Of a stretch of 62,587 nt of DNA, positions 4,297 through 57,837 are shown piece by piece (the stretch's first letter is position 1; each line of letters starts with the position of its first letter). The stretch comes from Patescibacteria group bacterium. Lineage in GTDB: Bacteria > Patescibacteriota > Patescibacteriia > 2-02-FULL-49-11. Position numbers and translations under genes: made by a program. The notes under the pieces are model-generated. The model saw only the letters and a program-made list of their open reading frames with translations. It ran no database searches and was not told where the DNA came from. The stretch lies in the NCBI GenBank assembly GCA_040757655.1, contig JBFLWV010000010.1:1-62587 (forward strand), given 5' to 3'.

Positions 4297-4334
4297 AATG
4301 CTATAAATCCCAAATCCCAATTTCAAATTTCCAA

Positions 4335-4493
4335 CCAGTTGGCCCTTCGGGCACTCACTCCCTCCGGACCGCACGAAAGCTGTGCTTACGTGCGGGGTCG
4401 TATCTCCTGCGAAGCCTAACGCAGTCCCGCACTTACCTGAAAGGTAAAGTGTCTGTCGGAATTTCAACGCTTTGAAATTCCGATACGATAAAA
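4335..4493 (-). ncRNA. Unclassified ~160-nt structured repeat element, copy 2
   Basis: Homologous to 1168..1327. Flanked by inverted simple-repeat arms (4300..4330 and 4520..4580). Lies between pilB and the receiver-like gene. Confidence 0.4.
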
Positions 4494-4581
4494 TCTCAAA
4501 CCCCAATGCTCACACGGTTTTGAGTATTGGACATTTGGATTTTATTTGACATTGGGATTTGGAAATTGGGATTTCTCAGTC

Positions 4582-6312
4582 TTATTCTTTCGTCGCACTC
4601 AATACCTCTTCTATCGTCGTAATACCCGCGATCGCTTTCACAATACCATCCTGCTTGAGGGTAAGCATTCCTTGCCGATTGAACGCGTCGCGAATCTGAT
4701 CGTACCTTGCGCCACTGGCGACAATCGCTTTTAACTCCTCGCTCACGCCTAACACCTCAGCGATAGCGGTCCGTCCCCCATACCCTTCTCCGCCGCACCG
4801 CTGACATCCTTTCCCTCTCCAAAACGTGAATGGCGCATCGAGCTTCACGGTCGCGGGGAGATTCTTCCGCACGGGTTCAAGCTCCTTGCGCACTTCTTGC
4901 ACAAGCGTATCAGGCGCCTCAAATGGCTCTTTGCAGAATTGGCACATCTTCCTGACCAACCGCTGTGCCACCACGACATTCAGCGTGGATGCGATAAGGA
5001 ATGGCTCCACTTTCATATCAATAAAACGCGGCATTGCCCCGAACGCATCATTCGTGTGAAGGGTGGAGAGCACAATATGCCCCGTGAGCGCTGCGTGAAT
5101 CGCAAGCTCTGCAGTTTCATTATCACGGATTTCTCCCACCATGACCGTGTCAGGGTCCTGCCGGAGGATAGAACGAAGGCCTGAAGCGAAGGTATACCCT
5201 ACCTCGGGGCGCACCTGGGATTGATTTACTCCTTTGAGATAATACTCCACCGGATCTTCCAACGTGACAATATTCACCCCCTCACTATTGAGGATGTTCA
5301 AAATCGCGTAGAGGGTAGTGGATTTGCCGCTTCCCGTAGGCCCCGTCACAAGGAACATGCCGTGGGGCTTGTCAATGTTATCCCGCATCACCGTAAGGTT
5401 CTTTCCTTCAAATCCCAAATCTTCAAGGGTGGGCACCCCTTCCGCAGTATCAAGGATACGCATGACCACCTTTTCATTGCTATAGAGGGGCAGCGTGGAT
5501 ATGCGGAAATCTATTTCCCTTCCCTCAATCTCGACCCTGATCCTCCCATCTTGTGGTACACGAGTTTCGTCAATTTTTAAGTCCGCTAACACCTTCACGC
5601 GCGACACAATGGCCGAATGGATATATTTAGGGAGCACGAGCGACGTATGCAATTCACCATCAATGCGGTACCGCACGCGCGTCTCGTTAAATACCGGCTC
5701 GATGTGGATGTCAGATGCCCGCGCTTCTACTGCGTGCTTCAGGATCGCCGAAACCATTTTTGAGACTGGCGCCGCTTTCACCACCTCTTCCATGCCTTCC
5801 ACCTTCTCTTTTGCGGTTGGCGCAAATTTACCAGCCGCTACATCTAAGGCCTCTTTCGCTTCCGTGCCAAGACTCCCATATTGCTTAATAATCCCTTGAT
5901 ACGCACGGGGTGTGGTAATGACATAATGAACTTTGAGTCCTTTTTCGCGCGCTAAGAATTCTACTGCTTCTTGAGCTTTGAGATCGGTCGCGTTCACCAG
6001 GGCGACCAAAAGCACATCCCCTTTGAGATCGAACACCGCGACTTGGTAATGAGTGGCTACTTCAAGGGGGATGTTCCTCAGCACCGTTTGATCTACCTTG
6101 CGTCCTATCAAATCTTCATAAGGAAGCCCAAATGCCTTTCCGCGCGCCCGTGCCATCACCTCTTCGGAAATCTGCCCCTGTGCAGCAAGAATCTTCTCTA
6201 CCGCATCGATGCTTTCCTCCTTTATTAAATGCTGATATGCATCAAGCGTAATAGCCTTCTCCTGAAGAAGGCTTTTTAAGAATTCTGTTTTTGGTTGTTC
6301 TCTGCGGGGCAT
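4582..6312 (-). CDS. pilB: Type IV pilus assembly ATPase PilB (GspE family)
   Basis: Walker A GPTGSGKSTT, VGEIRD, His box LSTLHTND and a C-terminal tetracysteine motif CQFC...CQRCGG. 576 aa. Confidence 0.95.
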   Translation of the reverse strand: MPRREQPKTEFLKSLLQEKAITLDAYQHLIKEESIDAVEKILAAQGQISEEVMARARGKAFGLPYEDLIGRKVDQTVLRNIPLEVATHYQVAVFDLKGDVLLVALVNATDLKAQEAVEFLAREKGLKVHYVITTPRAYQGIIKQYGSLGTEAKEALDVAAGKFAPTAKEKVEGMEEVVKAAPVSKMVSAILKHAVEARASDIHIEPVFNETRVRYRIDGELHTSLVLPKYIHSAIVSRVKVLADLKIDETRVPQDGRIRVEIEGREIDFRISTLPLYSNEKVVMRILDTAEGVPTLEDLGFEGKNLTVMRDNIDKPHGMFLVTGPTGSGKSTTLYAILNILNSEGVNIVTLEDPVEYYLKGVNQSQVRPEVGYTFASGLRSILRQDPDTVMVGEIRDNETAELAIHAALTGHIVLSTLHTNDAFGAMPRFIDMKVEPFLIASTLNVVVAQRLVRKMCQFCKEPFEAPDTLVQEVRKELEPVRKNLPATVKLDAPFTFWRGKGCQRCGGEGYGGRTAIAEVLGVSEELKAIVASGARYDQIRDAFNRQGMLTLKQDGIVKAIAGITTIEEVLSATKE

Positions 6313-6321
6313 ACCTTAGTG

Positions 6322-6413
6322 TGAAATTCAAAAATCAAAAGCCAAAATGAAGGAAAGTCATCCCGCTTTGCTGGATTCCATAATTTTGCATTTTGGATTT
6401 TGAATTTTGCATT
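6322..6413. repeat. Palindromic intergenic element built from degenerate A/C-rich and T/G-rich short repeats
   Basis: Left arm gaaattcaaaaatcaaaagccaaaatgaagg; right arm ccataattttgcattttggattttgaattttgcatt. Confidence 0.8.
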
Positions 6414-6416
6414 GTC

Positions 6417-6743
6417 TTATGGTCCGAATGTCGGAATAAACGGATTGACCCTTCCGGTGCGCGCCTCTCCCAACGGCCAGGTACCGTACTTTTGCAGCGA
6501 CCTAAACTCTTCGCTCTCAATAATGGAGCGATCTATCCCCTCCGCGAGCGTCTCAATGGCCGCGAGCGCTTCACTCACCTTGGGAGAAATAACGCTCACC
6601 ACAGGCGCTTCCTCCGCACGGGGCGCGCTCTTTGTATAGAAAAAATTCTTATACAACAAATACCCTCCCACGCTGTTGGTGAGTACAATCGCTATTAACA
6701 TGATGGTTTGTTTCTTCCGTGAGACTTGTCGTTCAATTAACAT
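6417..6743 (-). CDS. Small membrane-anchored protein in the pilus operon (function unknown)
   Basis: One N-terminal TM helix (IMLIAIVLTNSVGGYLLY). Sits between pilO and pilB. Confidence 0.5.
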   Translation of the reverse strand: MLIERQVSRKKQTIMLIAIVLTNSVGGYLLYKNFFYTKSAPRAEEAPVVSVISPKVSEALAAIETLAEGIDRSIIESEEFRSLQKYGTWPLGEARTGRVNPFIPTFGP

Positions 6744-13561: not shown

Positions 13562-13572
13562 ATTGAAAAAAC

Positions 13573-13601: not shown

Positions 13602-13669
13602 TCACTCATGGGAAGATATTAAGGAGAGGTGGCTGATCCAGCGTAGCAGGACCCAATCCGCACTTTTAT

Positions 13670-13929: not shown

Positions 13930-13955
13930 CATCAAAATCTACTCGCACAAATCCA

Positions 13956-14040
13956 GGAGGGGTCGCATAGCGGTTTAGTGCACCGGTCTTGAAAACCGGA
14001 GTACCGCAAGGTACCGTGAGTTCGAATCTCACCCCCTCCG
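13956..14040 (+). tRNA. tRNA-Ser (anticodon UGA), no encoded CCA
   Basis: Acceptor ggagggg/cccctcc, anticodon stem ccggt/accgg with loop ctTGAaa, variable arm gtaccgcaaggtac, T arm gtgag-ttcgaat-ctcac. Confidence 0.9.
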
Positions 14041-14068
14041 AATAATTAACAATCTTACACATTGCTCT

Positions 14069-14560: not shown

Positions 14561-14648
14561 TAAATCCCAAGTTCAAAATTCCAATGTCAAATTCGATATT
14601 TGAACTTTGGATTTTATTTGACATTTGACATTGGGATTTGGGATTTTC
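14561..14648. repeat. Palindromic intergenic simple-repeat element
   Basis: Left arm aaatcccaagttcaaaattccaatgtcaaat; right arm atttgaactttggattttatttgacatttgacattgggatttgggattt. Confidence 0.8.
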
Positions 14649-18325: not shown

Positions 18326-18581
18326 ATTTATCGAAATATAACTGAAAATAATGTTTGATTTCGGGACGATAATTCTGTCTGCCAAACTTGTCTGGGGTTG
18401 ATTTCTCGCGAAAAATCCGCGCGGCTTTTTTAATGCCTAATATCTTTATCACCTTCTGCACATCGTCCCAATCACCGTAATTTAAAACTGCTTCCAGAAT
18501 AGCCGCATCTGAAAGCCCGTCATAATTCCTTGTGGACCATACCAGATATGGTCTCGTTTTGATAAATGTTTGCAGTGTCAT
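18309..18581 (-). CDS. Small protein upstream of and overlapping AbiEii; presumed cognate antitoxin
   Basis: 90 aa. Its stop overlaps the toxin start by 17 nt. No HTH recognised by eye. Confidence 0.45.
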   Translation of the reverse strand: MTLQTFIKTRPYLVWSTRNYDGLSDAAILEAVLNYGDWDDVQKVIKILGIKKAARIFREKSTPDKFGRQNYRPEIKHYFQLYFDKYDKNT

Positions 18582-18790: not shown

Positions 18791-19954
18791 TTAATAACAC
18801 GTTCCACTTTGGCTTCCCCCATCACACTGACATACACCAGAACAACAGTTATCTGTTTCGACCAATTCTGTATAAATCTGACCGGGGAACCGAACTCGGC
18901 ATGTAGGGGTGCACACTGCACCTGGTTGCTTCCAAGGCGTAGAGCGGAATTCCGGTTTCAGTTCACACGTTCCGAGTTGGCTACTAACAGCAACACAGGT
19001 ATAACACGATCGACACTCAGCTAAACTCGCCAGTCCAGATGTAACGCATGCACCATGCGGCTCCACAAGGCACTGATGAGGTATGATAGATTGATCGCAT
19101 ATCAATGGAAGATTGGCGAGAAATGTAGTACCGTCATAAGCGGGAAACATCGCACAATCACTGTTATTTTTACACTCTGTTCCGGGTTGTTTCCAGTCAC
19201 ATAAACCACGCCCGTCTGGCCCACCAGTGGTAAAATGTGTACATAAATTATAACTTGGATCACGTTTCTGGCAATCCGCAACCGTATTACACCCCTCCTC
19301 ACACTTCGCTATGTCGTGACTATATTTATGGCATACGCAGGGCTTGCTTGCACACTCATTGCATGGCGTGCCTGATTCTTTAAATCCTATAGGGACGCCC
19401 TCTTCATTCGTAAGAACGCACGTATCAGCCGATGTACCGGTAAGGGGCGAGACTTTTGCAGGAGTCGCGCACTTTTCAGCCTGTGCGTCCTTTCCCCCTT
19501 CTTTGTATTTCCTGCACGGCGTAATCCACCACGCGTCGTTTGAAAAAATGGTGGCAGGCTTGCCTTCAGTGGGTATGCCTTTAAGTGAAATAATGACCCA
19601 GTTAGGCCACACCCATGCGGCAAGCAGGATGATGAAGAGCCCCACCACTGTGCCGCTTATCATCTTTTTCCCGTGCTCCACTGCCTCTGCTTTGCCTTGG
19701 GAAATCAAGAGCTGAAATCCTCCATACACAAGCAACGCAAGGGCAATGGCGCCAGAAAGCGACAACAAAAACCGCATGCCCTTGCTTGCCATGAGCAAAA
19801 GGTCGCAGATTGAACACGCGCCGCAGTCGAAGCAATCCCGCGCCACCACTTTGTCGGAGAAGAAACTGAAGGCGTGGACGGGAAGCGCGGAAAACGCGAA
19901 GAAGCTGAGTACGAATACAAGGATTATTATATGTAAGAAGCGATAACGCGACAT
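18791..19954 (-). CDS. TrbC/VirB2-like T4SS pilin module fused to a large Cys-rich extracellular domain
   Basis: Signal-like N-terminus, then two hydrophobic helices separated by a QGKAEAVEHGKK loop (VirB2 topology), then about 250 aa with more than 30 Cys. The ATG at 19954 is preferred over the GTG at 19972. Confidence 0.55.
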   Translation of the reverse strand: MSRYRFLHIIILVFVLSFFAFSALPVHAFSFFSDKVVARDCFDCGACSICDLLLMASKGMRFLLSLSGAIALALLVYGGFQLLISQGKAEAVEHGKKMISGTVVGLFIILLAAWVWPNWVIISLKGIPTEGKPATIFSNDAWWITPCRKYKEGGKDAQAEKCATPAKVSPLTGTSADTCVLTNEEGVPIGFKESGTPCNECASKPCVCHKYSHDIAKCEEGCNTVADCQKRDPSYNLCTHFTTGGPDGRGLCDWKQPGTECKNNSDCAMFPAYDGTTFLANLPLICDQSIIPHQCLVEPHGACVTSGLASLAECRSCYTCVAVSSQLGTCELKPEFRSTPWKQPGAVCTPTCRVRFPGQIYTELVETDNCCSGVCQCDGGSQSGTCY

Positions 19955-19971
19955 AATTTTCCAAGTTACCA

Positions 19972-20103
19972 CAAATCCAAAACCAAAAATCCAAACACTA
20001 AAATGATATCTGTTAATCCAAAATTACCGATGGCCTTTCAACGAAATCCTTTTTGAATTGTTCTCTATCATTTTGGATTTTGGGGTTTGGATTTTGGATT
20101 GGC
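19972..20103 (-). mobile_element. Internal-deletion (miniature) derivative of the four-helix-bundle palindromic element
   Basis: Both ends align at high identity with the ends of the element at 40515..40995. The left junction is ...aaaattaccgatggcctttca and the right junction is acgaaatcctttttgaattgttctctatcattttgg.... The roughly 330-bp gene body is missing. Confidence 0.8.
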
Positions 20104-20229
20104 ATAGGAACAGTGGAGGTCTGACATTTGAGTTAATAATTCATTCCATGTGAAATCGTGTAGTAATAATACAAGGGTGATAGAAGAAGAGAGGTTAGTA
20201 GGGCAGCTATTCCTACGGCGGCATCGGCC

Positions 20230-21732
20230 CTATCGTCCATCATCAGCATCTCCTGAATTATTCTTCGGACAATTCTTGGTCTGATTGATATCATATACGC
20301 CCGGCGCGCAGCATGCTGATCGGTGAGTTCCGAGGTCGTTGCCTGATTCAAAATGCCACCATTCCTCACAGAATCTATCGAAACCCACTTCGTTCATCTT
20401 CGCCTGGAATTCCTTGACGACGGGGCCTGTGGGCGGAGTGCCGTCGGGCGGAGCGTAATTTCTGTTAAGCATATTGCACGCAGCGTCATTTGTTACCCCT
20501 GAAGGGAGACTGCCCTGACTTACTTCAAGACACACATCTACCGCAAATCCTGTCTGGTGAGGGGCGTCACATGAGGGTGTCGCCGCTTTCGCGCAGCCTG
20601 AACATTTATACGGACAGCTCACAGGTGTCGTAGCCACGCTGTAATCATAACATCCCCTTAATCCTGTCTGATTTGCCATGGTGCGGTACGCAGACATGAT
20701 GACAAGGGTGAATTTCACTTTCTCATTTTTCCAACTATTCTCTCCTTTAAGCCAATTTTCGAGCTTTTTATTATTAAGCATAGCTATCACTTGAGCCATA
20801 AGTCGCGGCGGCTGTTCCACAGCACCTGGATTATTATTAACAACGATAGACTTATTTGTGAACACCGTAGGATCTGCAATCGACAAAAAATTGGACGATG
20901 ATACGGTCTTAGTGCACTCTTGCGGACCGAAATTGATATCGATGTTTGCCGCTTGTGATTCTACATCTTCCAGAGTGCTCAATGCCGTGTCAAACTCCAC
21001 AAGGCGCGGGTTGATGGTGTAGAAGAGCAAGTATGAGGTGAGCGCAATGATGAAGCCGACAATGGCGCTCATAATGGATGATTTTGCTTCCGTGATCTTT
21101 TCCGGTGACCCGCCTGCCATCAAATACTTGAATCCCCCAATCATGATGCCAATGACTGCCAAGAGGCCGATGGAGGCAATGAGGAAATAATAGATGCCGG
21201 CAATATACTCGCCTATGGTTTTGCTATCCAAAGGAACCGGCTTCCCTGAAATAAAGCCCGTGCCTGGAATTGACACCTGGGGTTTAAATTGAATGGGATC
21301 ACGCTTGGAAGGCGGCACATAGACCTGCATCTTGTCACCAACAGGCGCAAACGCCTGCACTGATTGTTTTACGTCAGGACACGATGCTGCAGCACAATCA
21401 CCACTGTTTTGGTACGTGCACGCATAATACACGCCGTTTTGGGTTTTGATGCCGGTGACGCTAATCTTATTTCCTCCAACCTTGGGCTGAGGAGAGAGCG
21501 GTGCGAGATATTTAAAAGTCACTGGCCCATCGCATGCATCGGGACTAAGTGTTGGATAACAGACGTTCTGTAAGTAATCTTCCTTCTTTATACCTGTCGG
21601 CTGCTTATCATTTATCTTACACACGCAACACTGCGCATGGGCGGGAAGCGGAAAAAAATATGCACCAATCACCAAGAGTCCTGTAAGAAAGGTATATACT
21701 CTTTTACCAATTTGGTTATGATGCATAAACAT
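20230..21732 (-). CDS. Membrane protein with central VirB2-like pilin module and C-terminal M15 (VanY/LAS) peptidoglycan peptidase domain
   Basis: Pilin-like segment IAGIYYFLIASIGLLAVIGIMIGGFKYLMAGGSPEKITEAKSSIMSAIVGFIIALTSYLLF. Peptidase motifs SAYRT..Q, HQTGFAVDV and EWWHFE. Confidence 0.65.
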   Translation of the reverse strand: MFMHHNQIGKRVYTFLTGLLVIGAYFFPLPAHAQCCVCKINDKQPTGIKKEDYLQNVCYPTLSPDACDGPVTFKYLAPLSPQPKVGGNKISVTGIKTQNGVYYACTYQNSGDCAAASCPDVKQSVQAFAPVGDKMQVYVPPSKRDPIQFKPQVSIPGTGFISGKPVPLDSKTIGEYIAGIYYFLIASIGLLAVIGIMIGGFKYLMAGGSPEKITEAKSSIMSAIVGFIIALTSYLLFYTINPRLVEFDTALSTLEDVESQAANIDINFGPQECTKTVSSSNFLSIADPTVFTNKSIVVNNNPGAVEQPPRLMAQVIAMLNNKKLENWLKGENSWKNEKVKFTLVIMSAYRTMANQTGLRGCYDYSVATTPVSCPYKCSGCAKAATPSCDAPHQTGFAVDVCLEVSQGSLPSGVTNDAACNMLNRNYAPPDGTPPTGPVVKEFQAKMNEVGFDRFCEEWWHFESGNDLGTHRSACCAPGVYDINQTKNCPKNNSGDADDGR

Positions 21733-21740
21733 GGACAAGC

Positions 21741-21840
21741 TCAAAACTCAAATCTCAAAACGCAAAACCATAACTCAAAACCCATTAGCTTTGAGTTCTA
21801 AGATGTGGATTTGAGTTTTGAGTTCTGACATTTGAGTTAT
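21741..21840. repeat. Palindromic intergenic element of the caaaactcaaatctca type
   Basis: Left arm caaaactcaaatctcaaaacgcaaaaccataactcaaaa; right arm ctttgagttctaagatgtggatttgagttttgagttctgacatttgagttat. Confidence 0.8.
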
Positions 21841-22661: not shown

Positions 22662-22798
22662 AACTAAATGAGCACAAATCCAAATCCCAAAATAAGAGAA
22701 GTAACTCAAAACTCAAATCTCATAACTCAAAACCATAACGTAAAAACGATAAATCCCAAATCCCAATATCAAATTTCCAATAAAATCTCAAATCACAA

Positions 22799-23179: not shown

Positions 23180-23280
23180 TGGGATTTTGAAATTGGGATT
23201 TACCCGCTGGTTCTGACATTTGAGTTCTCCTATGTGGGTATGACGTTCATCTCTATAAAGTTACTCTCCTTAAACACATC

Positions 23281-26399: not shown

Positions 26400-26482
26400 T
26401 TACTAATCCAAATCCCAAAAACCAAACGAAGAAATAACAACTCAAAACTCAAATCTCAGAACTCAAAGCCATAACGTAGAAC

Positions 26483-26908
26483 TTAGAACTTCTTTTTGCC
26501 TTTCATGGTAAGGAGGCTCGCACTGATCATCTTGCTCAACTGCTCTGCCTCGTCTAATAACGGGGTGATTGTTTCCTTGGTAGATAACTTACTGTCGCGC
26601 AACAGACAAAACCAGTAGAGGGTCTCATTGCAGCTTTTAAGGGAAATTTCGTAATACTTAATGAACTCTCTTTTGGAACTTGAGGATTTCGCTTCTACGA
26701 GATTGGCGCCTATCGAGGTGGCTGATCGCAAGAGCTGGTCGGTGAAAATCGCGTAGATTCTGTCATGAGGAAAATCCTTAACTAACATGATGACATCCAA
26801 TGAAAACCGATAGGCACGGTACTTCACATGAGCTTTGAGATCTGAGCTGTGGTTTTGAGATTTGAGTTCTGACATTTGAGTTGATAATCTTGAATTGTTC
26901 TTTATCAT
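26483..26908 (-). CDS. Four-helix-bundle protein (23S rRNA IVS-protein family)
   Basis: Motifs QLLRSATSIGANLVEA and REFIKYYEISLKSCNETLYWF. Sits inside nested inverted repeat arms. The exact start is uncertain. Confidence 0.8.
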   Translation of the reverse strand: MIKNNSRLSTQMSELKSQNHSSDLKAHVKYRAYRFSLDVIMLVKDFPHDRIYAIFTDQLLRSATSIGANLVEAKSSSSKREFIKYYEISLKSCNETLYWFCLLRDSKLSTKETITPLLDEAEQLSKMISASLLTMKGKKKF

Positions 26909-26941
26909 TTTGCATTTTGGGATTTGGATTTTGGATTAGGG

Positions 26942-28873: not shown

Positions 28874-28887
28874 GAACTTTAATGTAA

Positions 28888-28972
28888 ACCCCAAAATCCA
28901 AAAACCAAAATGATAATCAAGAATTTATAAATTTTGGGCTATCATTTTGCATTTTGGGATTTGGATTTTAAA
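28888..28972. repeat. Miniature palindromic element (caaaatgata ... tatcattttg core)
   Basis: Left arm ccccaaaatccaaaaaccaaaatgataatc; right arm gctatcattttgcattttgggatttggatttt. Confidence 0.8.
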
Positions 28973-28981
28973 TTAGTACCG

Positions 28982-29668: not shown

Positions 29669-29682
29669 ACCTTCCTTAATGT

Positions 29683-29792
29683 AAAAACCAAAATCCAAAA
29701 ATCAAAATGATAGATGATAATCCAAAATATTTGAGGTTATCGTCCCGAAGGGACTCTTTCATTTTGGATTTTGGGATTTGCATTTTGCATTA
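29683..29792. repeat. Palindromic intergenic element with gtccc-gaa-gggac core
   Basis: Arms aaaaccaaaatccaaaaatcaaaatgata and tttcattttggattttgggatttgcattttgcatt. Core at 29742..29754. Confidence 0.8.
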
Positions 29793-30218: not shown

Positions 30219-30232
30219 ACCTTCCTTAATGT

Positions 30233-30345
30233 AAACTCCAAAATTCAAAACCCAAAATGATATATTATAATTTAAAATATTTGAGGGGATCGTCCCGACC
30301 GCGTCGGGACACCTTCATTTTGATTTTTAGGATTTGATTTTTGCA
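30233..30345. repeat. Palindromic intergenic element with gtcccgac-cgc-gtcgggac core
   Basis: Core at 30291..30309. Arms ctccaaaattcaaaacccaaaatgata and ccttcattttgatttttaggatttgatttttgcatt. Confidence 0.8.
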
Positions 30346-30351
30346 TTACTA

Positions 30352-40514: not shown

Positions 40515-41050
40515 CATAACAAATCCAAATCTAATCCAAATCCCAAAATCCAAATACCAAAATGATATCTGTGAATCCAAAATTATCGACGGCCTTTCAT
40601 GGTAACGATACTTGCCCCAATAATTCTGGCAAACTCATTAGCCTCGCGAGAGAAGGCTTCAACTTCGTCTCGATGTGAGACGCTCACTGTTTCCTGGAGC
40701 ACCATGAGCCAGTAGATCGTCTCATTGGCTGATTTAAGTGCAATCTCGAAAAAATGAATGTAATCTCTTTTTGAACCTGAACCTTTCGCCTCTACGACGT
40801 TCGCACCAATTGAACCTCCACTGCGGATTACTTGATCGACGATTGACCACAGCAGTCTATTCTCACCTTTAATCCTCTCCCCAAGCTTGATGATATGCAC
40901 GGTGAATTGGATCAACCTTCTGATGAAATCCTTTTTGAATTGTTCTCTATCATTTTGGGATTTGGGATTTGGGTTTTGGATTGGCATAGAGGCTGTGGGG
41001 ATTTGGAATTTTATTTGACATTGGGATTTGGAAATTGGGATTTAATGCGT
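40515..41050 (-). mobile_element. Full-length palindromic element carrying a four-helix-bundle gene
   Basis: Left arm aaatccaaatctaatccaaatcccaaaatccaaataccaaaatgata; right arm tatcattttgggatttgggatttgggttttggatt, plus a second arm set. A miniature derivative lies at 19972..20103. Confidence 0.7.
40583..40987 (-). CDS. Four-helix-bundle protein (23S rRNA IVS-protein family)
   Basis: Motifs QVIRSGGSIGANVVEAKGSGSKRDYIHFFEIALKSANETIYW. The N-terminus MPIQNPNPKSQND is encoded by the repeat arm. Confidence 0.85.
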   Translation of the reverse strand: MPIQNPNPKSQNDREQFKKDFIRRLIQFTVHIIKLGERIKGENRLLWSIVDQVIRSGGSIGANVVEAKGSGSKRDYIHFFEIALKSANETIYWLMVLQETVSVSHRDEVEAFSREANEFARIIGASIVTMKGRR

Positions 41051-46739: not shown

Positions 46740-46809
46740 AGGGCAATTACTAATTGTGTTAAATTCCAAATCCCAATTCCATTTTGCATTTTGGGATTTG
46801 GATTTTGGA

Positions 46810-49800
46810 TTAATACTTATTTTGTTGGTACCCGCACGTTCCTCCAGCGTCACAATCGCTATCAATAACGCACGGCTGCGGATCCCCTGCGGGAGAGTTT
46901 GAACAGTACTTTGCCGTGATGATCGTATCAGGTCCTCTGCCAGTCTCATGCAGCCCCACGCAGCCCGCTTCAGGATCCAGCACGCCGTTGCACTCACCCT
47001 CCTGGCTCGAAATTTTATCTTTTGGCGCATAGAGGAAATCGCATGCAACCACCGAACAGGTGCCGCCAGGACCGGGGGGAGTTGCCGCAGTACTGCACTG
47101 CGCATCGGTGGTGCAGGTGAAGGGAGTGGCACCTTCACTGCATACCTTTTGTCCATACACAAGCGTTTTATTGCACCCCTCTGGCAGCCGCGGATCCTGA
47201 TACTCGGTGCAGGTGGATACTTGTGGACTGCACTTTGCCACTGCATTTGAGCATGTTCCCCTACTTCCTGGTCGAGCAAAATCAAGACAATCATTATCGC
47301 TCACGCAGAGATTCCTTTCCTTATACGTCACGCCATTGGCGTCAGCGGTGAGATTTTTGCTTCTTCCCCCAATGCAGTGACCCAAAGGACGGCACGTCGC
47401 GCCTGCAGGACACCTCGTACCCACGTTGGCAGCAGTACAACTCCGATACGGCGCGTTGGAACACACACTCGTCACGGTGGGACAAGGAATAGAAGAGCCG
47501 ATCTCATACCACGTGGTCACGGTGCCTTCTGTCTTATATTCACAGACATAGCCGGTAGGATCTTTAAATACTTTCCTTGACTGGCTCGCATCAGTGCCGG
47601 TCCATGTGGCGCAATATTCTTCGGGCAGTGTGCACAGGCTCGTACTCTTCCCTACCTCGTCGCTGAATGTGTCTGGATCAACCATCACGATCGTATCCGC
47701 AAACGTGCTCGTGGCAACCCCGCTCGCGGAATTCCAAAATGCCACGCTTGCCTGCCCCAGCAGGGTACATCCTGCCTGCGTGTTCGTGCATGAGGCATCT
47801 ATGGAAGGAATGAGGTAGGTGAGCGTATCCGCAGGCACGGTGAGCGCTGAGGCGGGGCTATAGATGCGCCCTGCGTCAGTGGAGTTATAGAATGTCTGCT
47901 CAGCAGGATTGCTTGAATTCTGCGTGTCAATCAAGACCTCGCATCCCACAAACCGTTCAGGACATAGCGTAGAAAATTGTTTGAAATAGAAGGTTGTATC
48001 TGTCCCTCCTTGCCGGTACGCGGCGCAGTTGAGCTGGGCGCCTATCACTGTGGCTATTGGCGGAACTTGACTATTCTGATCGCAGGTCTCTGGCGTATAC
48101 CAACTATCCTTGATCGCGTACACCTGCGCAGTTTGCAGGACCACATTGTCAAGGTAGGTATAGGCGAAAGGACTCATCCTCACTTGCGCAGGCCCGGCGC
48201 TTGTTGCAGTAAACGGCCCAAGCGTATATGAGTTCCACGATGTGGTTACATTAGCCGCGTAGGACGCGGGAGTGGCCACCGGCACTTGTCCGGTGTTATC
48301 AACAAGTGAAACAGTTATCGTGCCCGCGGTATCAGCCCGCGCCCAGAATTTCACGTTATAGAGCTTGCCGGTTTCAAGAGAAAACCCAGGCCGGTAGGCA
48401 TTCAGTCCAACAATTTTGAGCGAATGGTTATTCAACACCGCTGCTTCATTGGAAACGGAAAGCGTGGTGGCCGCATCAGGATGCCACGGCTCATACGATC
48501 CGCTCTCGAACGTATCAGAGAAAAATGTCTGTACATTGCCGCCATCGCCTCTCCGATACTCACGGCAACCGGCAGAGAAGGGTGCGCATGTGGTGCTATA
48601 GGTGGGAATTGCCTTATATACGCAATTATTTCCCTGCATGGTTCCCCGATGGCTCGTACACCACGCGGCTGCGGTCTCGAGGAGCGTACGCCGCAGGGGA
48701 TGGCAATCGTCTGATGCGATGATCACTTTTGAGAAATAACGGTAGTAGTAATTAAGGTTGCCATCAATAAACTGCCGACAATCAAGATCGGGGGTGGGGG
48801 AATTGAAATCATTTTCACAATCAATGCCATCAGGGCTCCGCGACGGATCTACTTGCTTTTGTCCTGTCACCGCGGGCGCGGTATTCGGGCCGCCGCTGGG
48901 AATCAATGTCCACACCTTCAGCTGAAAACCCGTCGTATCTGATCCTTCCCACGTGTAGTAGGGCGCCTCGCCGCTCCCGAGCTGTTCGCATTGCATGAGC
49001 GCCGTGTAGTACTCCTTGCCCTCGCCTCCCCGCGCCACCTCATCAAGGTTCGTGAATTCATCGCACCCCACGTCTTGCGCAGGACAGGATTGAGCGGTAG
49101 CGGGTATGAAATTAACCCCAGGACTAAACCCAATGGCTGCTTCAAAATTCGTTTCCCTCTGTTCAAACTTTTTATATCCCACGCACTCTGCCGGACACTC
49201 ATCATTCCAATCCGTGACATTGCCTTCCACATCAATAGAGGCCATGGTTGGCTTTGCAGGAATTGCCACTTGCAATTCCGTCGGATCAAGCGGCGTATAA
49301 AGGTTACATCCTACATACTTACTCTTTTCCTCAAGCGACGCCGCGGGATCTGAAGAACCAATGCATGATTCGGCAGTGTTATTTAAGTATACCGACTCAG
49401 TTTCTCGCTCATTAAAATTCCGGTAAGAATCAGTGCCCGCGATGACATTATTAAGCAGCGTAGTGTATTCCGCGGGTGTGAGGAGGTGTTTCGCCTCATC
49501 CTTATGCCGTATGCGAACATAATCTTTGCACCCCACTGCGTTCGGCTCTTTACACGCAGCTTCAGCCATATTTAAGGCGCTTTGGTTTAAGAAATAATTA
49601 TCTGCTGCTGCCACGCTATTCACCCATCCTCCCGCATCCCTGCGTCTTGTGTAGCGGCGGCACCCTTCGGACGCCGTTCGCGTACAACCCTCTGCATCAG
49701 TGGTATTCATGAGGAAGCTTACTGCTTGCTCTGATCCTGTTTTTTTAAGCTCCAAACATGAGGCAAACTGCGCAGGACACGACTCGCCCAAGGTCCACAC

Positions 49801-52141: not shown

Positions 52142-52272
52142 AAAATCTTTATATCACAATGAGGAGAATGACGAGGAGAGAGAATAATTTACGACGAGAA
52201 GAAAAATGCACCATATCCTATAAATCCAAATCCCAAAAACCAAAATCCAAAATGATAATAAATAATGTAGAA

Positions 52273-52650
52273 TTATCGTCTATCCTTCATGGTAAGTATG
52301 CTTGCGCCGATTATCTTCGCAATCTCCACGTTTTCACGGTACAAAACTTCAATTTCGTTCCGCAACCCGCTCTCCACGGTTTCGCGCAGAACCATTAACC
52401 AATAGGTCGTCTCATTCGCGGATTTGAGCGCAATTTCAAAATAGTGGATGTAGTCTTTCTTGGAACCAGAACCTTTCGCTTCCACGACATTCGCGCCGAT
52501 CGAGCCGCCGCTGCGAATGGACTGATCCACGAGCGACCATAAGAGTTTATTGCGCTCTTTGACCTTTTCTCCCAATCTAATGAGGGCTATCGTAAACCGT
52601 ATGAGCCTGCGGATAAAGTCCTTTTTGAATTGTTCTTTATCATTTTGCAT
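52273..52650 (-). CDS. Four-helix-bundle protein (23S rRNA IVS-protein family)
   Basis: Clear sequence similarity by eye to the protein at 40583..40987 (QSIRSGGSIGANVVEAKGSGSKKDYIHYFEIALKSANETTYW). Flanked by inverted repeat arms. Confidence 0.85.
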   Translation of the reverse strand: MQNDKEQFKKDFIRRLIRFTIALIRLGEKVKERNKLLWSLVDQSIRSGGSIGANVVEAKGSGSKKDYIHYFEIALKSANETTYWLMVLRETVESGLRNEIEVLYRENVEIAKIIGASILTMKDRR

Positions 52651-52676
52651 TTTGGGATTTGGATTTTGGATTAGGG

Positions 52677-53416: not shown

Positions 53417-54295
53417 CTATATTGCACCATATTTTGTGGTATAAAGCATAGTCCAATCATCAAGAGAAAGCTCTCCCGGACGCCTCTCTATAAACGCGGA
53501 TGAACGCGGATTACTACGCAGATCAACGCTGATGTTGATTGTGTTTAAAATCTTCCTACGAGGGAAGCGAAAGGCAGGTTTGATAAAATGTAAAAACGTT
53601 TCACTCTTGATGCCGTTCCTCCGCGCTAAAACGAACGAGTCGTGTAAGTCAATCTTCACTAATGCGCTCTCCACGGCAGGCATCGGCCAAAATGCGGAAC
53701 GCGGGATGAAGCGTACCATCTCCACTCTGCCGAACCACTGCGCCACCACAGAGAGGAGAGACATATACGGCGGGCGCGCAGCAAGGCGCTCGGCGACTTC
53801 CTTCTGGAGGATGAGCACTAAACGTTTTGGGAGGCGATCATCCTTCAACACGGATGAAAAAAAATCCGAAGTAATGGAATATGGAAGACTCGCTACTATA
53901 GATAACCGTTTCACCTTGTGACAATGTAACAATGTAACCATTTGACTATTCAACCATCCGATGAAGTCTCTCTCTATCACTTCCACATTCTTAATCTTTT
54001 GACGCGCCAATTCACTTTTTAAAAATTGTACCAACTTCGGCTCAATCTCCACCGCTGTCACGCGCCGCGCCTGCTTCGCCAATCCAAACGTTAACGCCCC
54101 AAACCCCGGTCCTACTTCAATGACTTCGTCATCTAGGTGGAGGCGCGCGGCATGGATCGTCTCTCGCGCCACCTTTTCATCAATGAGAAAATTTTGGCCG
54201 CGATCATGGCTGGGATGAAAACGGTATTGCGCACAAATTTTTTTAAGTTCGCCTGCGGAGTAAAGAGAAGACACAGGATTAAACTCAAATCTCAA
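53417..54295 (-). CDS. rsmA: 16S rRNA (adenine1518/1519-N6)-dimethyltransferase RsmA/KsgA
   Basis: GQNFLID and VIEVGPGFGALT motifs. The C-terminal region contains a CGCGGAT/CGCAGAT repeat insertion. Confidence 0.9.
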   Translation of the reverse strand: MRFEFNPVSSLYSAGELKKICAQYRFHPSHDRGQNFLIDEKVARETIHAARLHLDDEVIEVGPGFGALTFGLAKQARRVTAVEIEPKLVQFLKSELARQKIKNVEVIERDFIGWLNSQMVTLLHCHKVKRLSIVASLPYSITSDFFSSVLKDDRLPKRLVLILQKEVAERLAARPPYMSLLSVVAQWFGRVEMVRFIPRSAFWPMPAVESALVKIDLHDSFVLARRNGIKSETFLHFIKPAFRFPRRKILNTINISVDLRSNPRSSAFIERRPGELSLDDWTMLYTTKYGAI

Positions 54296-54382
54296 ATGTC
54301 AAAGCTCAAAACCATATCTTAAATCTCAAAGCTATCGGGTTTTGAGTTGTGGTTTTGAGATTTGCGCTTTGAGTTTTGAGAT
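54281..54382. repeat. Palindromic simple-repeat element overlapping the rsmA start and tsaC end
   Basis: Left arm aaactcaaatctcaaatgtcaaagctcaaaaccatatcttaaatctcaaagc; right arm gggttttgagttgtggttttgagatttgcgctttgagttttgagat. Confidence 0.75.
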
Positions 54383-55093
54383 CGGGATAGGACCGCGCCT
54401 CAATACGTCCATCTCACCGTCTAGGTGTACTTGAATAATGGTTGATGGCTTCCTCCGTGGCAATGTTCCCGCATCGATAATCAAATCCGGCCGATGCTTC
54501 CTCCTTTGGAATTCTCTTACCACTGCGGCGGCGCTATAGAGATTTTCCCCTCCGGATATGTTCGCGCTCGTGGCGATTATTGGCCTACCTAATCCTCGTG
54601 CCAATTTCTGTGCAATCGGATGCGAGGAAATACGGAGAGATAACGCACCGCCGACACCCTCACCCTCGCCTCCTGGCGTCAGGAGGCGAGCCTCTCCCTT
54701 TTTAGGGAGAGGAACTTGTTGCCTTTGAGTCTCTCCCCCTAATAAGGGGGAGAATCGAAAAAATCCACTGGATTTTTTCGATGAGAGGGTGTGTCGTTTC
54801 AATGGCAACACCAACGACAACGGCCCCGGCCAAAACGTATGTGCGAGTTTGCGAGCGAGGGGGAAAAACTCCACATACTGCGCTGCTATTGCATGCGTAG
54901 ACACAATAACCGGCAATTGTTTCTCTGCCGGCCGCTGTTTGATGCGCCTCACTTTCTCATGCACCCGCGGATTGGTCCAGTCGCCGCCTAAACCGTAAGA
55001 AGTTTCGGTGGGATAGACCACCACGCCTCCCTTACGAAGCACTGTTACAGCAATCTGTATCATGTTGTGTTCGCTCACTGAAACCGCCTGCAT
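54332..55093 (-). CDS. tsaC: L-threonylcarbamoyladenylate synthase TsaC/YrdC family, with a ~50-aa hairpin-derived insertion
   Basis: GGVVVYPTETSYGLG and ATSANISG motifs. The start is at 55093 or 55063. Confidence 0.85.
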   Translation of the reverse strand: MQAVSVSEHNMIQIAVTVLRKGGVVVYPTETSYGLGGDWTNPRVHEKVRRIKQRPAEKQLPVIVSTHAIAAQYVEFFPLARKLAHTFWPGPLSLVLPLKRHTLSSKKSSGFFRFSPLLGGETQRQQVPLPKKGEARLLTPGGEGEGVGGALSLRISSHPIAQKLARGLGRPIIATSANISGGENLYSAAAVVREFQRRKHRPDLIIDAGTLPRRKPSTIIQVHLDGEMDVLRRGPIPISKLKAQISKPQLKTR

Positions 55094-55096
55094 AAT

Positions 55097-55187
55097 GCAA
55101 AACCCAAAATCCAAATACCAAAATGATAGACCAAAATTTATAGATTATTCATTTTCATTTTGGATTTTGGGATTTGGATTTTGGGTT
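55097..55187. repeat. Miniature palindromic element (caaaatgata ... core)
   Basis: Left arm caaaacccaaaatccaaataccaaaatgata; right arm ttcattttcattttggattttgggatttggattttgggtt. Confidence 0.8.
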
Positions 55188-55188
55188 A

Positions 55189-57837
55189 TTATTGCGCCAC
55201 AATATTGAGCAGCTTCCCCTTCACATATACCTTTTTCGTGACCGTAATTCCTCTCAAGTACTTCTGAATTTCCGGCGCTGCTCCCACCGCCGCAAACACC
55301 TCTTCCTCTCCTGCACCTCGGAGGACTTCCACCATTCCTCTCTTCTTTCCGTTGATCTGGATGACCACGCTTACCTTCATCTCAAGTATCAACCGAGGAT
55401 CAAATTTCGGCCACGGCTCCTTAAAAATACTCGACACGTTTTCTGAATCATCTGCGTTGATCTGCGTATTAGATCTGCGTTGATCTGCGGCATGCGCAAA
55501 GCGCATGCGTTGCCACAGCTCTTCGGCTATATGAGGGGCAAAAGGAGCAAGGAGTACAATGAGTAAAGTATAATAATCACGCATCGCGGGATCCCGCAAG
55601 TCAGCTTTGACAAGCTCATTGGTATAGGTCATGAGCTGCGCAATCGCCGTGTTGAATTTGAAACTTTCAATATCCTCTGTCACTTTCTTAATCGTCTGAT
55701 GCGCCAGCATCTGTAAACGCTTTTTCTGAACCGCAGGATATTTATTAATAAATGTCTCCTTAGTTTTGAGTTTTGAGTTTTGAGTTTTGAGTTTGTTACC
55801 CAACATCCACACTCTCTCCAAAAATCTCCTCACGCCCACGATGCTGTTCATCGACCAAGGATACGCGCCCACCGTCGCATACGGCCCGATGAAGGCGAGA
55901 TACATACGAACCGCATCAGCCCCCAGCCGCTCCACTTGCTCGTCAGGATCCACGACGTTTCCGTGCGACTTGGACATCTTCTGCCCATCGGGGCCTAAAA
56001 TAATACCCCGATTAAGTCTCCGCACGTACGGCTCACACCATGGAACCAATTTCAACCTCTCCATCGCTTTGATCCAAAACCGCGAGTAAAGCAAGTGCAT
56101 AGTCGTATGCTCGGCGCCGCCCGAATAAAGGTTGACGGGCATCCACTGCGCCATTTTCTCTTGCGCGGCAAATACTTTTTCATTTCCCGGATCGGTATAA
56201 CGCAAAAAATACCATGATGAATCAATAAAGGTGTCTAGCGTATCCGTTTCCCTCTCGGCCGCTCCCCCGCACTGCGGGCACTTTACCCGCACCCAGTCTG
56301 CGGCTTTCGAGAGCGGCGACCTCCCGTCATCGCGCGGTTTATAATCATCTAATTCAGGCAGCTCAACTGGCAGCTGATCACCAGGAACGGGAATCACTGC
56401 GTGCATAACACCATCAATCTCACTGCCAACTAATTTTGGATTTTGGATTTTGGATTTTGGATTTTCCCAGCATCTACGACAGTAGATGATGGGAATGGGG
56501 CATCCCCAATACCGCTGGCGTGAAATCAGCCAGTCGCGCAGTTTATAACTTGTGGATCTTTTGCCTAACTTATTTAACTCCAACCATGCTACAATCCTCT
56601 CCCTCGCGGTTTGAGAATCCAAACCAGTAAATTTACCAGAGTTCACTACGGCGCCCTCGCCTTCATACGCACCTTGTACGGGCGAACGGCCGTTCGCCCC
56701 TACCTCTGGACTGATAACCTTCCGTATCGGCAGATGAAACTCTTGAGCAAAAGCAAAATCCCTTGCATCATGACCAGGCACCGCCATAATCGCCCCCGTC
56801 CCGTATCCCATGAGCACGTAATCAGCGACCCATATAGGGATTTCCTCCTTAGTTGCCGGGTTCACCGCTCGTATCCCCGCCAACTCAACACCGGTTTTCT
56901 CCTTCTGTAGCTGCCCCCGTTCCATTTCAGTCTTGGTCTTCGCCCGCTCAATATATTCTTTCACTTCTTCTAGATTCTTGATTCCAGATTCTAGATTCTC
57001 GATAAGCGGGTGCTCCGGTGCCAATACAAGGTACGTCGCACCAAAGATGGTATCTGGTCTGGTGGTAAAAACTTCAACGTACAAATTTGAATTTGTGATT
57101 TGGGATTTATTTGGAAATTGGAAATTGGAAATTGGAAATTTCACAAGAGCTCCTTCGCTTCTCCCAATCCAGTTCCGCTGCGCTTCCTTTATCTCCTCCG
57201 GCCACGGAAGCGTTTCTAAATCATGTAATAGCGCATCTGCAAAATCTTTGATCTTCAGCAACCATTGTTTCATCTTCCGCTGCATGACTGCTGATTCGCA
57301 CCGTTCGCATCTGCCGTCGATAACCTGCTCATTCGCGAGCACGGTCTTGCACGAATGGCACCAGTTCACCAAGCTATCCGCTTGATAGGCGAGCCCCGCT
57401 TTGAAAAACTGAAGGAAGATCCACTGGGTCCAGCGATAATAATCAGGTTCGCACGTCACGACTTCCCGTTCCCAATCAAACGAAGCGCCCATGCGCCTGA
57501 GTTGCTTCCGCATGTACTCAATATTGTCATGCGTCCACGTGCGGGGATTGATGCCGCGCTTCAATGCGGCGTTTTCTGCGGGAAGTCCGAACGCGTCAAA
57601 GCCGATGGGAAAAAGCACATTGAACCCGCGCATGCGCATGAAGCGCGCAAAAATGTCAGGAATGGCAAATGCATACCAATGGCCGATATGGAGATTGCCT
57701 GAAGGATAGGGAAATTCAACGAGCAGATAAAAATTCTTTTTACCCCTCACTACATCTGCAGCATGGAATATGCCTTGTTCCTCCCAATGCTTCTGCCACT
57801 TTGGTTCAATTTGTTTGTGATCGTAGGTTGAGGACAT
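55189..57837 (-). CDS. leuS: Leucine--tRNA ligase, carrying four repeat-derived in-frame insertions
   Basis: HIGH motif (PSGNLHIGH), KMSKS motif (QKMSKSHGN), CP1 editing-domain motif TTRPDT and a zinc motif CPQCGG. Confidence 0.97.
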   Translation of the reverse strand: MSSTYDHKQIEPKWQKHWEEQGIFHAADVVRGKKNFYLLVEFPYPSGNLHIGHWYAFAIPDIFARFMRMRGFNVLFPIGFDAFGLPAENAALKRGINPRTWTHDNIEYMRKQLRRMGASFDWEREVVTCEPDYYRWTQWIFLQFFKAGLAYQADSLVNWCHSCKTVLANEQVIDGRCERCESAVMQRKMKQWLLKIKDFADALLHDLETLPWPEEIKEAQRNWIGRSEGALVKFPISNFQFPNKSQITNSNLYVEVFTTRPDTIFGATYLVLAPEHPLIENLESGIKNLEEVKEYIERAKTKTEMERGQLQKEKTGVELAGIRAVNPATKEEIPIWVADYVLMGYGTGAIMAVPGHDARDFAFAQEFHLPIRKVISPEVGANGRSPVQGAYEGEGAVVNSGKFTGLDSQTARERIVAWLELNKLGKRSTSYKLRDWLISRQRYWGCPIPIIYCRRCWENPKSKIQNPKLVGSEIDGVMHAVIPVPGDQLPVELPELDDYKPRDDGRSPLSKAADWVRVKCPQCGGAAERETDTLDTFIDSSWYFLRYTDPGNEKVFAAQEKMAQWMPVNLYSGGAEHTTMHLLYSRFWIKAMERLKLVPWCEPYVRRLNRGIILGPDGQKMSKSHGNVVDPDEQVERLGADAVRMYLAFIGPYATVGAYPWSMNSIVGVRRFLERVWMLGNKLKTQNSKLKTKETFINKYPAVQKKRLQMLAHQTIKKVTEDIESFKFNTAIAQLMTYTNELVKADLRDPAMRDYYTLLIVLLAPFAPHIAEELWQRMRFAHAADQRRSNTQINADDSENVSSIFKEPWPKFDPRLILEMKVSVVIQINGKKRGMVEVLRGAGEEEVFAAVGAAPEIQKYLRGITVTKKVYVKGKLLNIVAQ

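Follow-up and report, generated by a model that had tools for sequence, protein, structure and literature searches.

What is the short palindromic element that separates two pilin-like genes in a Patescibacteria group bacterium, and how is it related to longer, gene-carrying elements of the same contig? The window considered here is a stretch of 62,587 nucleotides (contig JBFLWV010000010.1, positions 1 to 62,587, of assembly GCA_040757655.1). A first-pass annotation had described the element as an internally deleted copy of a gene-carrying element, and had proposed that the two forms relate to each other like miniature and autonomous transposons. Judging from sequence comparison, the element (19972-20105) very probably arose by internal deletion from a gene-bearing cassette whose subtype is that of 40516-40995. 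In such a cassette, a gene for a four-helix-bundle (4HB) protein, of the family named after the intervening sequences (IVS) of 23S rRNA, forms the loop of a long inverted repeat. Coordinates of the elements are compiled in Table 1.

An internally deleted cassette in the pilin gap

The element lies between the open reading frames (ORFs) 20230-21744 and 18791-19972, both on the minus strand and both matching T4SS_pilin. Regions 19960-20120 and 40505-41010 were compared by gap-tolerant global alignment; a three-way alignment by MAFFT set the left junction wrongly. Two collinear blocks were obtained, interrupted by a single gap of 323 nt (40600-40922). Within the window, the 33-nt segment ATCTGTKAATCCAAAATTAYCGAYGGCCTTTCA of the left block occurs solely at 20008-20040 and 40567-40599, and the 23-nt segment TCCTTTTTGAATTGTTCTCTATC of the right block solely at 20047-20069 and 40929-40951, plus a copy with one mismatch at 52619-52641. 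The similarity that had been claimed for both ends of the 130-bp element is thus correct and includes unique junction segments. Likewise, the reported loss of a gene body of roughly 330 bp corresponds to the 323-nt gap, and the body belongs to a gene matching PF05635 and TIGR02436.

As the arms are of low complexity and occur at many places, both loci might merely be rich in A/C and G/T heptamer repeats, and resemble each other by chance. This explanation is refuted by the single-gap alignment and the unique shared segments, and its probability is practically nil: the 33-nt and 23-nt segments common to both loci are non-periodic, shuffled sequence gave no match to either of them, the blocks are collinear with one gap only, and the N-terminal reading frame of the parent is retained in the remnant.

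Pieces of the 4HB gene are still present in 19972-20105: ~21 codons from its beginning, ~4 codons from its end, and the 3′ untranslated region (UTR). The 30-amino-acid remnant ORF that had been predicted was found, with its ATG 2 nt past the end (20103) assigned to the element before. This ORF keeps the parental frame up to the junction; because the deletion of 323 nt is out of frame, it then runs on to a new stop codon. The ATG within the 'caaaatgata' core does not serve as start of the gene, being out of frame in these cassettes. The start of 40583-40987 is ctATGcc at 40985-40987, in the outermost part of the arm; the same ctATGcc is found at 20103-20105; the start of 52273-52650 is ATGCAAAATGA at 52648-52650. 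Allowing one mismatch at most, the core CCAAAATGATA occurs 17 times in the window, where 1.65 occurrences are expected.

According to RNA folding, the deletion in 19972-20105 removed the loop and spared all sequence pairing in the stem. ATC/CAT repeats at both breakpoints of 40516-40995 are candidate microhomologies. The junction in the remnant differs from these breakpoints by 2-5 nt; therefore, 40516-40995 is not the true parent, and the mechanism of deletion is not readable from it.

Anatomy of the gene-bearing cassettes

Four ORFs of the window (40583-40987, 52273-52650, 26483-26908, and 22799-23179) match PF05635 (23S rRNA-intervening sequence protein, E 1e-15 to 1e-25) as well as TIGR02436 (four helix bundle protein, E 1e-20 to 1e-27), with scores well over the curated thresholds. 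The closest solved structure is 2rld. Domain scans of the four genes detected PF05635 only, and no transposase, recombinase or nuclease domain.

Each 4HB gene forms the loop of a long inverted repeat, whose arms are heptamer arrays of 44-61 nt with 72-82% complementarity, giving an imperfect stem of 30-40 bp; over the hairpins in general, inverted repeats measured 40-60 nt. Read along the transcript, the 5′ arm is rich in A/C and holds the start codon together with the first 5-15 codons, while the 3′ arm starts a few nucleotides past the stop codon. The stem is prolonged inward by pairing of N-terminal coding sequence (e.g. CAATTCAAAAAGGA) with the 3′UTR (TAATTTTGGATT). Fold z-scores ranged from -2.8 to -6.6 for short copies and reached -3.6 for the full element of 491 nt; the minimum free energy folds were closed by the arm stem.

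Three families were distinguished by their arm heptamers, i.e. CCAAAAT (family A), CTCAAAA (family B), and TCCCAAT/GTCAAAT (family C). The start sequence is ATGCAAAATGA or ctATGCCAATCC in family A, and lies within AACTCAAATGTCAGAAC in family B and within CCCAATGTCAAATAAAATCC in family C. Each family comprises one or two 4HB-bearing copies as well as short copies, and the short members of a family have in common a non-periodic arm segment that includes the 4HB ATG.

Cassettes and hairpins fill their gap exactly, from the stop codon of one host gene to the ribosome-binding site of the next. Often, the upstream stop codon is part of the TAAT with which the 5′ arm begins on the outside; at the other side, the 3′ arm leads into CATTAAGG(AAGG)TATG, the ribosome-binding site and start of the following gene. 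It may be that the 3′ terminus of an element provides this ribosome-binding site or overlaps with it. We also noted that 29677-29792 and 30227-30348 are both followed by an identical 20-nt sequence, TTTACATTAAGGAAGGTATG, comprising a Shine-Dalgarno sequence and start codon (near 29650-29700 and 30200-30250), and that TAAGGTATG recurs after elements in two contigs of relatives (L004 and L006; contigs fetched for comparison are designated by such numbers) and at position 6305 of the window.

The 4HB gene is co-oriented with both adjacent genes for all four copies in the window and at every fetched locus with called neighbors. On the minus strand of the pilin gap, consensus scans found no promoter-like or terminator-like motif, with the reservation that the consensus may not apply to the Candidate Phyla Radiation (CPR). 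The simplest reading of the elements is that of passengers in host operons.

A graded series from full cassettes to bare hairpins

When all family-A copies were aligned at both ends, 5′ and 3′, in transcript orientation, the amount of retained gene sequence was found to be graded. The element in the pilin gap tops the series of short copies. A second, independent deletion derivative (L003, 4990-5115) retains GATAGAGAACAAT and agrees, at 27 of 27 nt, with the 3′UTR found in the full cassette of that contig. In the composite 26402-26939, the family-A shell is preserved through GAACAATTCAA; the likely start of the nested family-B gene (ORF 26483-26908) is ATGTCAGAAC at 26873-26875. Retained sequence shrinks further in 29677-29792 (AAAATGAAAGAG and GACGATAA), in 28880-28975 (ATGCAAAATGATAG), and in 46755-46812 (ATGCAAAATGG).

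Two gene-less versions that had been noted before at 28888-28972 and 55097-55187 are present with slightly wider limits (28880-28975 and 55091-55190). They are 78-81% identical in either orientation; as both are near-perfect palindromes, their relative orientation is ambiguous.

These observations make it likely that full cassettes gave rise to coding-stub remnants and eventually to bare hairpins, by deletions within the loop that spared the stem. The relation that had been proposed, in which gene-less copies are comparable to miniature inverted-repeat transposable elements (MITEs), is borne out insofar as the series of deletion and decay is real. Its division into autonomous and miniature forms is not supported: neither a transposase nor a target-site duplication was found, and 4HB proteins are not known to act in mobility. 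The wider statement that the ubiquitous palindromes of this genome derive from the gene-bearing form agrees with the graded breakpoints and with one slot in L004 described below, but is too broad in view of arms around GIY-YIG genes, an IS200-like gene, and the non-coding insert of 4305-4574.

Table 1. Cassettes, hairpins, arm fragments, and heptamer arrays located in the window
Position	Strand	Feature	Remarks
19972..20105	-	Family-A cassette with 323-bp internal deletion	Both hairpin arms present
20013..20105	-	30-amino-acid remnant ORF MPIQNPNPKIQNDREQFKKDFVERPSVILD	Frameshift past deletion junction
20106..20140	-	Family-B 5′ arm fragment AACTCAAATGTCAGA	Immediately upstream of the remnant as transcribed
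40516..40995	-	Full family-A cassette, heptamer-repeat arms around 4HB gene 40583-40987	Alignment, PF05635, fold
40996..41040	-	Family-C 5′ arm fragment AAATCCCAATGTCAAATAAAAT	Adjoins full cassette
52220..52674	-	Full family-A cassette, MQNDKEQFKK subtype	4HB gene 52273-52650
26402..26939	-	Composite: outer family-A shell with nested family-B cassette	Shell retained through ATGCAAAATGATAAAGAACAATTCAA
22750..23202	-	Full family-C cassette, 4HB gene 22799-23179	Start codon within arm motif CCCAATGTCAAATAAAATCC
28880..28975	-	Short family-A hairpin	Retains ATGCAAAATGATAG and 3′UTR tail ATTATCATTTTGG
55091..55190	-	Short family-A hairpin	Between LeuRS and Sua5-like genes
29677..29792	-	Short family-A hairpin, PrgI/TraC-like slot	Retains AAAATGAAAGAG and GACGATAA (stop-proximal codons)
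30227..30348	-	Paralogue of 29677-29792	84% identical, same derived junction, 540 nt apart
46755..46812	-	Family-A mini-hairpin of ~58-60 nt	5′ arm and ATG (33 nt) as in L004 full cassette
6305..6426	-	Short hairpin, TTCAAAA/CCAAAAT flavor	
21745..21838	-	Short family-B hairpin	Retains AACTCAAATGTCAGAAC
54284..54380	-	Short family-B hairpin	CAAATCTCAAAACCACA in common with inner arm of 26402-26939
14562..14646	+	Short family-C hairpin	
4305..4574	-	Family-C arms around ~210 nt of strongly structured non-coding sequence	
56429-56466, 55759-55799	-	In-frame heptamer arrays	LeuRS gene 55189-57837
61959-62001	-	In-frame heptamer array	TsaD-like gene 61222-62448
22040-22076	-	In-frame heptamer array	DsbA-like gene 21837-22709

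Turnover of cassettes at intercistronic slots

Contig L004 (GCA_040960315.1) is collinear with the window from 55.7 to 45.1 kb. Between a 1579-aa gene and a 218-aa gene it carries a full family-A cassette, where the window has only the mini-hairpin 46755-46812; the first 33 nt of the latter (TAATCCAAAATCCAAATCCCAAAATGCAAAATG) are identical to the arm and ATG in L004. That slot is taken in L035 and L036 by a family-C cassette, with a remnant of ~20 nt of a family-A 5′ arm before it. L003 has a full cassette at the slot of 40516-40995, and the slot of its deletion derivative (4990-5115) is only 25 nt long in the window.

In L008, whose pilin-like protein is 68% identical to that of the window, the genes flanking the pilin-gap slot overlap at ATGA, leaving no intergenic DNA, and L006 contains 222 nt of unrelated sequence at this position. 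Therefore, the remnant and the adjoining family-B arm fragment were inserted in this lineage specifically, with subsequent loss of the gene. The slot beside the PrgI and TraC-like genes is occupied by a short hairpin in the window, by a short hairpin of another arm flavor in L006, and by a full 4HB cassette in a Portnoybacteria contig (L009).

Other cargo was detected as well. At the slots of 26402-26939 and 22750-23202, L006 has genes for 94-aa GIY-YIG proteins (5058-5342 and 8690-8974), flanked by GC-rich palindromes of their own and, in part, by heptamer arms of TTTTCAA type. Further GIY-YIG genes were seen in L013-L017. The slot orthologous to 52220-52674 is found at 3487-4290 of L004, with heptamer arms of CCAAAGTT flavor around a Y1 transposase gene of IS200/RAYT-like type (3604-4101; motifs NHLH and YIHNNP recognized by eye; RAYT, REP-associated tyrosine transposase; REP, repetitive extragenic palindromic sequence). 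This gene is bounded by GC-rich end hairpins of its own (GGTTCAATCTNNNAGATTGAACC), and next to it comes what looks like the C-terminal remainder of a 4HB gene, which points to insertion of an insertion sequence (IS) into a 4HB cassette.

Taken together, the slots compared here have shown that cassettes turn over at fixed intercistronic positions by insertion, nesting, replacement, and internal deletion. Not counted as evidence of transposition was a case in which L013 and L018 share an identical 123-aa 4HB protein and upstream flank but differ in the downstream genes: the break lies within the 3′ arm and could be due to recombination at the arms or to a metagenome assembly chimera at the repeat.

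Coupling of arms and protein

Homologues of the 4HB proteins were obtained from Doudnabacteria, Portnoybacteria, Uhrbacteria, Moranbacteria, and genomes labeled 'Patescibacteria group'; for families A and C, the best-listed 120 homologues include members outside CPR. The family-C query alone gave >4000 protein matches at E <= 1e-8. Exact look-ups of three proteins of the window gave no match, and the contigs of relatives were reached by way of protein homologues. In these proteins, the translated 5′ arm can be followed as a conserved N-terminus: MQN[DE]K..FK is present in 108 of the 120 best-listed family-A homologues, 23 of which carry extensions such as MQKSKIKMQNEK that are translated heptamers, and M[SPT]N[KQ]I..PN in 98 of the 120 best-listed family-C homologues. 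At DNA level, arms were confirmed in L003, L004, L009, L011, L013, L018, L019, and L036; in L011, an Omnitrophota contig, the cassette is located between exbB and exbD. A scan with the exact arm pattern gave one match each in genome contigs (L001, Methanogenium) and metagenome contigs (L002), and the anatomy of the element was not found in L002. Carriage of 4HB genes by phages was rejected, as only two weak matches of 34-44% identity were obtained.

Cognate 5′ and 3′ arms pair better with each other than non-cognate ones do (permutation p = 0.004). As arm-encoded N-termini are conserved and cognate arms are present and pair, the arms appear to belong to the unit of the gene, rather than to host hairpins that were invaded. 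This is the main argument for regarding bare hairpins as putative derived forms. The family-specific combination of protein type and arm type also suggests that a 4HB protein recognizes its own arms.

Comparison of 52273-52650 with the 4HB gene of L004, which resides in a different slot, gave dN = 0.07, dS = 0.64, and omega = 0.11, a ratio indicating purifying selection on the 4HB genes. For flanking host genes in these two genomes, dS values are 1.3-2.5. The lower dS of genes in different slots implies that they share a later common ancestor than their hosts, that sequence was exchanged, or that synonymous sites are constrained.

Resemblance to rRNA intervening sequences and a possible passenger mechanism

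IVS encoding the S23p protein are located in helix 25 or 45 of 23S rRNA and occur in Leptospira, Coxiella, Brucella, and Xanthomonas. The Coxiella IVS comprises 428 nt, and a 28-bp stem formed by terminal inverted repeats closes the loop that contains the S23p ORF; tandem heptamers precede the ATG directly, RNase III cuts the element out, and the ORF is in reductive evolution (PMC4990558). The cassettes resemble such elements in several respects. These include (i) an ORF of the PF05635/TIGR02436 family in the loop (reduced to stubs in 19972-20105); (ii) closure of the loop by a long stem of terminal inverted repeats, with heptamers before or around the start codon; (iii) a sense ORF within the host transcript that lacks a promoter of its own; and (iv) decay of the ORF within the element. 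In contrast, they are found (i) between protein genes of ordinary operons and not in helix 25 or 45 of 23S rRNA; (ii) in multiple copies per genome, with at least three arm/protein families; (iii) with arms that are translated as the N-terminus of the protein; and (iv) together with a full series of gene-less derivatives. Hence, the cassettes are of IVS type in anatomy and cargo, and lie outside the 23S rRNA location by which an IVS is defined.

By analogy, we tentatively propose a passenger mechanism based on RNase III, to which we give slightly less than even chances. A promoterless cassette would be transcribed as part of the host operon, and its arms would form a long double-stranded RNA stem in which the 4HB start codon is buried. 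This stem would probably be cut by RNase III, as in 23S-rRNA IVS, separating the cassette from the flanking cistrons and rendering the insertion harmless to them. Loss of the stem, and not that of the gene, would then be harmful to the host, which would account for the sparing of the stem by deletions. The start codon within the stem and the upstream stop codon at its base suggest that translation of the 4HB gene is coupled to termination of the upstream cistron. Circumstantial evidence for RNase III comes from the stem length of 30-40 bp and from one relative with a 4HB gene directly downstream of rnc. In this Moranbacteria population (L019-L028, ~2158-3387), a family-C cassette is part of the gene row L32-NusB-rnc-4HB-SMC, with a Y1_Tnp gene upstream; with regard to RNase III, the arrangement is anecdotal.

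Several points weigh against this account and the decay series on which it builds. Co-transcription with the host operon and processing by RNase III are steps that we infer. Hairpins form equally well from either strand (summed dG of -387 vs -401 kcal/mol), and G·U counts of sense and antisense hairpins revealed no bias; selection might therefore act on DNA hairpins or cruciforms instead of RNA. No element was found within an rRNA gene: at gathering thresholds, Rfam detects only three tRNAs in the window, and all copies in the window and fetched loci lie between protein-coding genes. The low dS of the 4HB pair could in part reflect constraint by RNA structure instead of recent transfer. At some slots, the direction of change is not polarizable without a phylogeny, as gain and loss of the gene look alike. 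Finally, the source genome and most relatives are known as fragments, which bears on copy numbers and insertion boundaries. With decay and mechanism taken together, we consider it rather probable, with some reservation, that 19972-20105 is a decayed remnant of a hairpin-bounded, IVS-type 4HB cassette.

Alternative origins of the hairpins

A genuine MITE relationship would require the 4HB cassette to be an autonomous DNA transposon, whose protein, with or without host factors, recognizes the arms and moves gene-less hairpins in trans. The elements do resemble bacterial MITEs in being short, gene-less, hairpin-forming intergenic repeats with terminal inverted repeats that arose by internal deletion of a longer gene-bearing element (19972-20105 and 4990-5115 of L003). 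Many copies end in TAAT...ATTA, compatible with a TA target, and protein type is coupled to arm type across distant genomes; divergence between the two 4HB genes in different slots is lower than that of the host genes, and the pilin-gap slot is empty in L008. The only hint of spread of gene-less copies is the local pair 29677-29792/30227-30348 with its shared derived junction. However, the long form lacks a domain for transposition, recombination or nuclease activity, so that labeling it autonomous was premature. Inspected boundaries revealed no consistent direct repeat that could be a target-site duplication, with the empty site of L008 being too diverged to define boundaries. Moreover, gene-less copies in the window are heterogeneous, without a burst of near-identical copies, and the strict co-orientation of gene-bearing copies with their hosts is unexpected for a DNA transposon inserting in either orientation. 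We regard this origin as unlikely. Quite unlikely, too, is a reversed order of events, in which intercistronic RNA elements of the host, serving in processing, stability or translational coupling, had their loops invaded by 4HB, GIY-YIG, and IS200-like genes, so that 19972-20105 would have gained and then lost a 4HB gene. The similar arms around GIY-YIG genes (L006), the Y1 transposase gene (L004), and the non-coding insert of 4305-4574 can be read in this way, as can the exact position of hairpins between stop codon and Shine-Dalgarno sequence and the different arm flavors at orthologous slots. It is at odds with arms that encode family-specific start and N-terminal codons, conserved in most of the best-listed 120 homologues of families A and C, and with short hairpins of all three families that retain the ATG segment, some together with further coding and 3′UTR stubs. 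The IS200-like element in L004, in turn, has different end hairpins of its own and an apparent 4HB remnant beside it.

Movement of the hairpins by a Y1 (HUH) tyrosine transposase of RAYT/IS200 type encoded elsewhere, with 4HB genes as passengers, would make them similar to REP sequences and REPINs (REP doublets forming hairpins). REPINs likewise are long hairpins in intergenic positions. Y1_Tnp genes occur near cassettes in L004 (within arms) and in L019-L028, and further parallels to REPs, REPINs, and bacterial interspersed mosaic elements (BIMEs) are intercistronic palindromes within operons, clusters in which different arm types form a mosaic (41000-41115; 20106-20140), and a possible effect on mRNA processing or stability. 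This origin is nevertheless highly improbable: none of the 23 window ORFs scanned against Pfam is a Y1 transposase, the gene associated with the arms is the 4HB gene, the GC-rich hairpins around the L004 transposase are unrelated to heptamer arms, and the arms themselves are AT-rich heptamer arrays with stems of 30-40 bp, not GC-rich REPs of 20-40 nt with GTAG or CGTC heads.

A different kind of relationship is offered by Avd, the accessory protein of diversity-generating retroelements (DGRs) and the characterized relative of PF05635 proteins. Avd, a pentameric four-helix-bundle protein of the same superfamily as the 4HB proteins, binds nucleic acid and the reverse transcriptase. No reverse transcriptase gene was found beside the cassettes among the scanned ORFs, and no pair of template and variable repeats was recognized, although no dedicated search for one was made. 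Unlike in DGRs, whose set of features does not include hairpin arms, the neighbors of the cassettes are host genes (pilins, parts of the type IV secretion system, LeuRS, KsgA, Sua5, PolX, PPDK, and ExbB/ExbD). Extending the preferred reading as IVS-type cassettes, IVS-type elements might be mobile cassettes of two niches, rRNA helices and intercistronic gaps, with the S23p/Avd-like 4HB protein as specificity factor. Each 4HB family would recognize its own heptamer arms, as RNA or single-stranded DNA, and promote copying or maintenance of full and gene-less forms, while cutting of the arm stem by RNase III would render each insertion phenotypically silent. We put this forward as a speculation that is improbable in its entirety.

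Further arrays and neighboring genes

The non-coding insert of 4305-4574 is GC-rich and folds into several tetraloop-capped hairpins (z-score -6.5). In region 4200-4650, Rfam gave no match for it apart from a chance miRNA-like one; the insert may represent structured RNA cargo that replaces a gene.

Between the full cassette 40516-40995 and a 1644-aa gene, positions 41000-41115 form a mosaic of arm types (family C, GGATTTGGAAATTGGG, and TTTAGGGTTTAGAGTTTAGG) that resembles a BIME-like cluster of arm fragments.

Single-armed heptamer arrays were also noted in frame within long ORFs of housekeeping genes (CCAAAAT x4.5, CTCAAAA x4, and CCCAAAA x3). Those in the LeuRS, TsaD-like, and DsbA-like genes encode ENPKSKIQNPKLV, GNKLKTQNSKLKTK, QNQTQNSKLKTQNYG, and EIQNPKPKTQNYG; no partner arm was found for them, except for a weak one at 21757-21784. 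Being tolerated in frame within essential genes, they are reminiscent of Rickettsia palindromic elements (RPEs), but they are single arms and not palindromes. We know of no gene-bearing parent of RPEs. [quoted passage not shown]

Genes in the neighborhood of the elements include those matching T4SS_pilin, PrgI, TraC-like, and AbiEii families. Along with the source taxa of the 4HB homologues, they place the window in CPR. The AbiEii-like toxin gene is located at 17705-18385, and L006 has an AbiEii gene (13492-14136) downstream of its pilin-like genes. NYN-domain genes occur in tandem (33159-33701 and 34066-34599) beside a DUF3800 gene (34856-35524).

Significance for CPR genomes and the PF05635 family

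Hairpin-bounded cassettes with a PF05635 gene and their shrunken remnants are apparently widespread between genes of Patescibacteria-type (CPR) genomes and undescribed. In the full-text literature, with most subscription journals outside its scope, we found no description of intercistronic cassettes of this kind, of their remnants, or of such CPR repeats; what was found instead was work on the Coxiella IVS and papers on DGRs and Avd.

To our knowledge, neither a function nor a means of spread has become known for S23p (PF05635) since it was first described in the early 1990s. Here, a gene-in-hairpin unit of S23p type occurs many times per genome, in ordinary CPR operons, and the three co-existing protein/arm families, arm-encoded N-termini, and slot-by-slot decay series make the question testable. 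They provide a comparative system for the binding target of the 4HB protein, the stem as a site of RNase III, and the movement of the cassettes. For CPR annotations, the cassettes account for many short palindromes between genes, unusual N-terminal extensions, and small stub ORFs, and they are likely break points in metagenome assembly. If the 4HB protein indeed acts as a specificity factor, this would provide a function for the PF05635 family as well as a mechanism of mobility that does without a conventional transposase.

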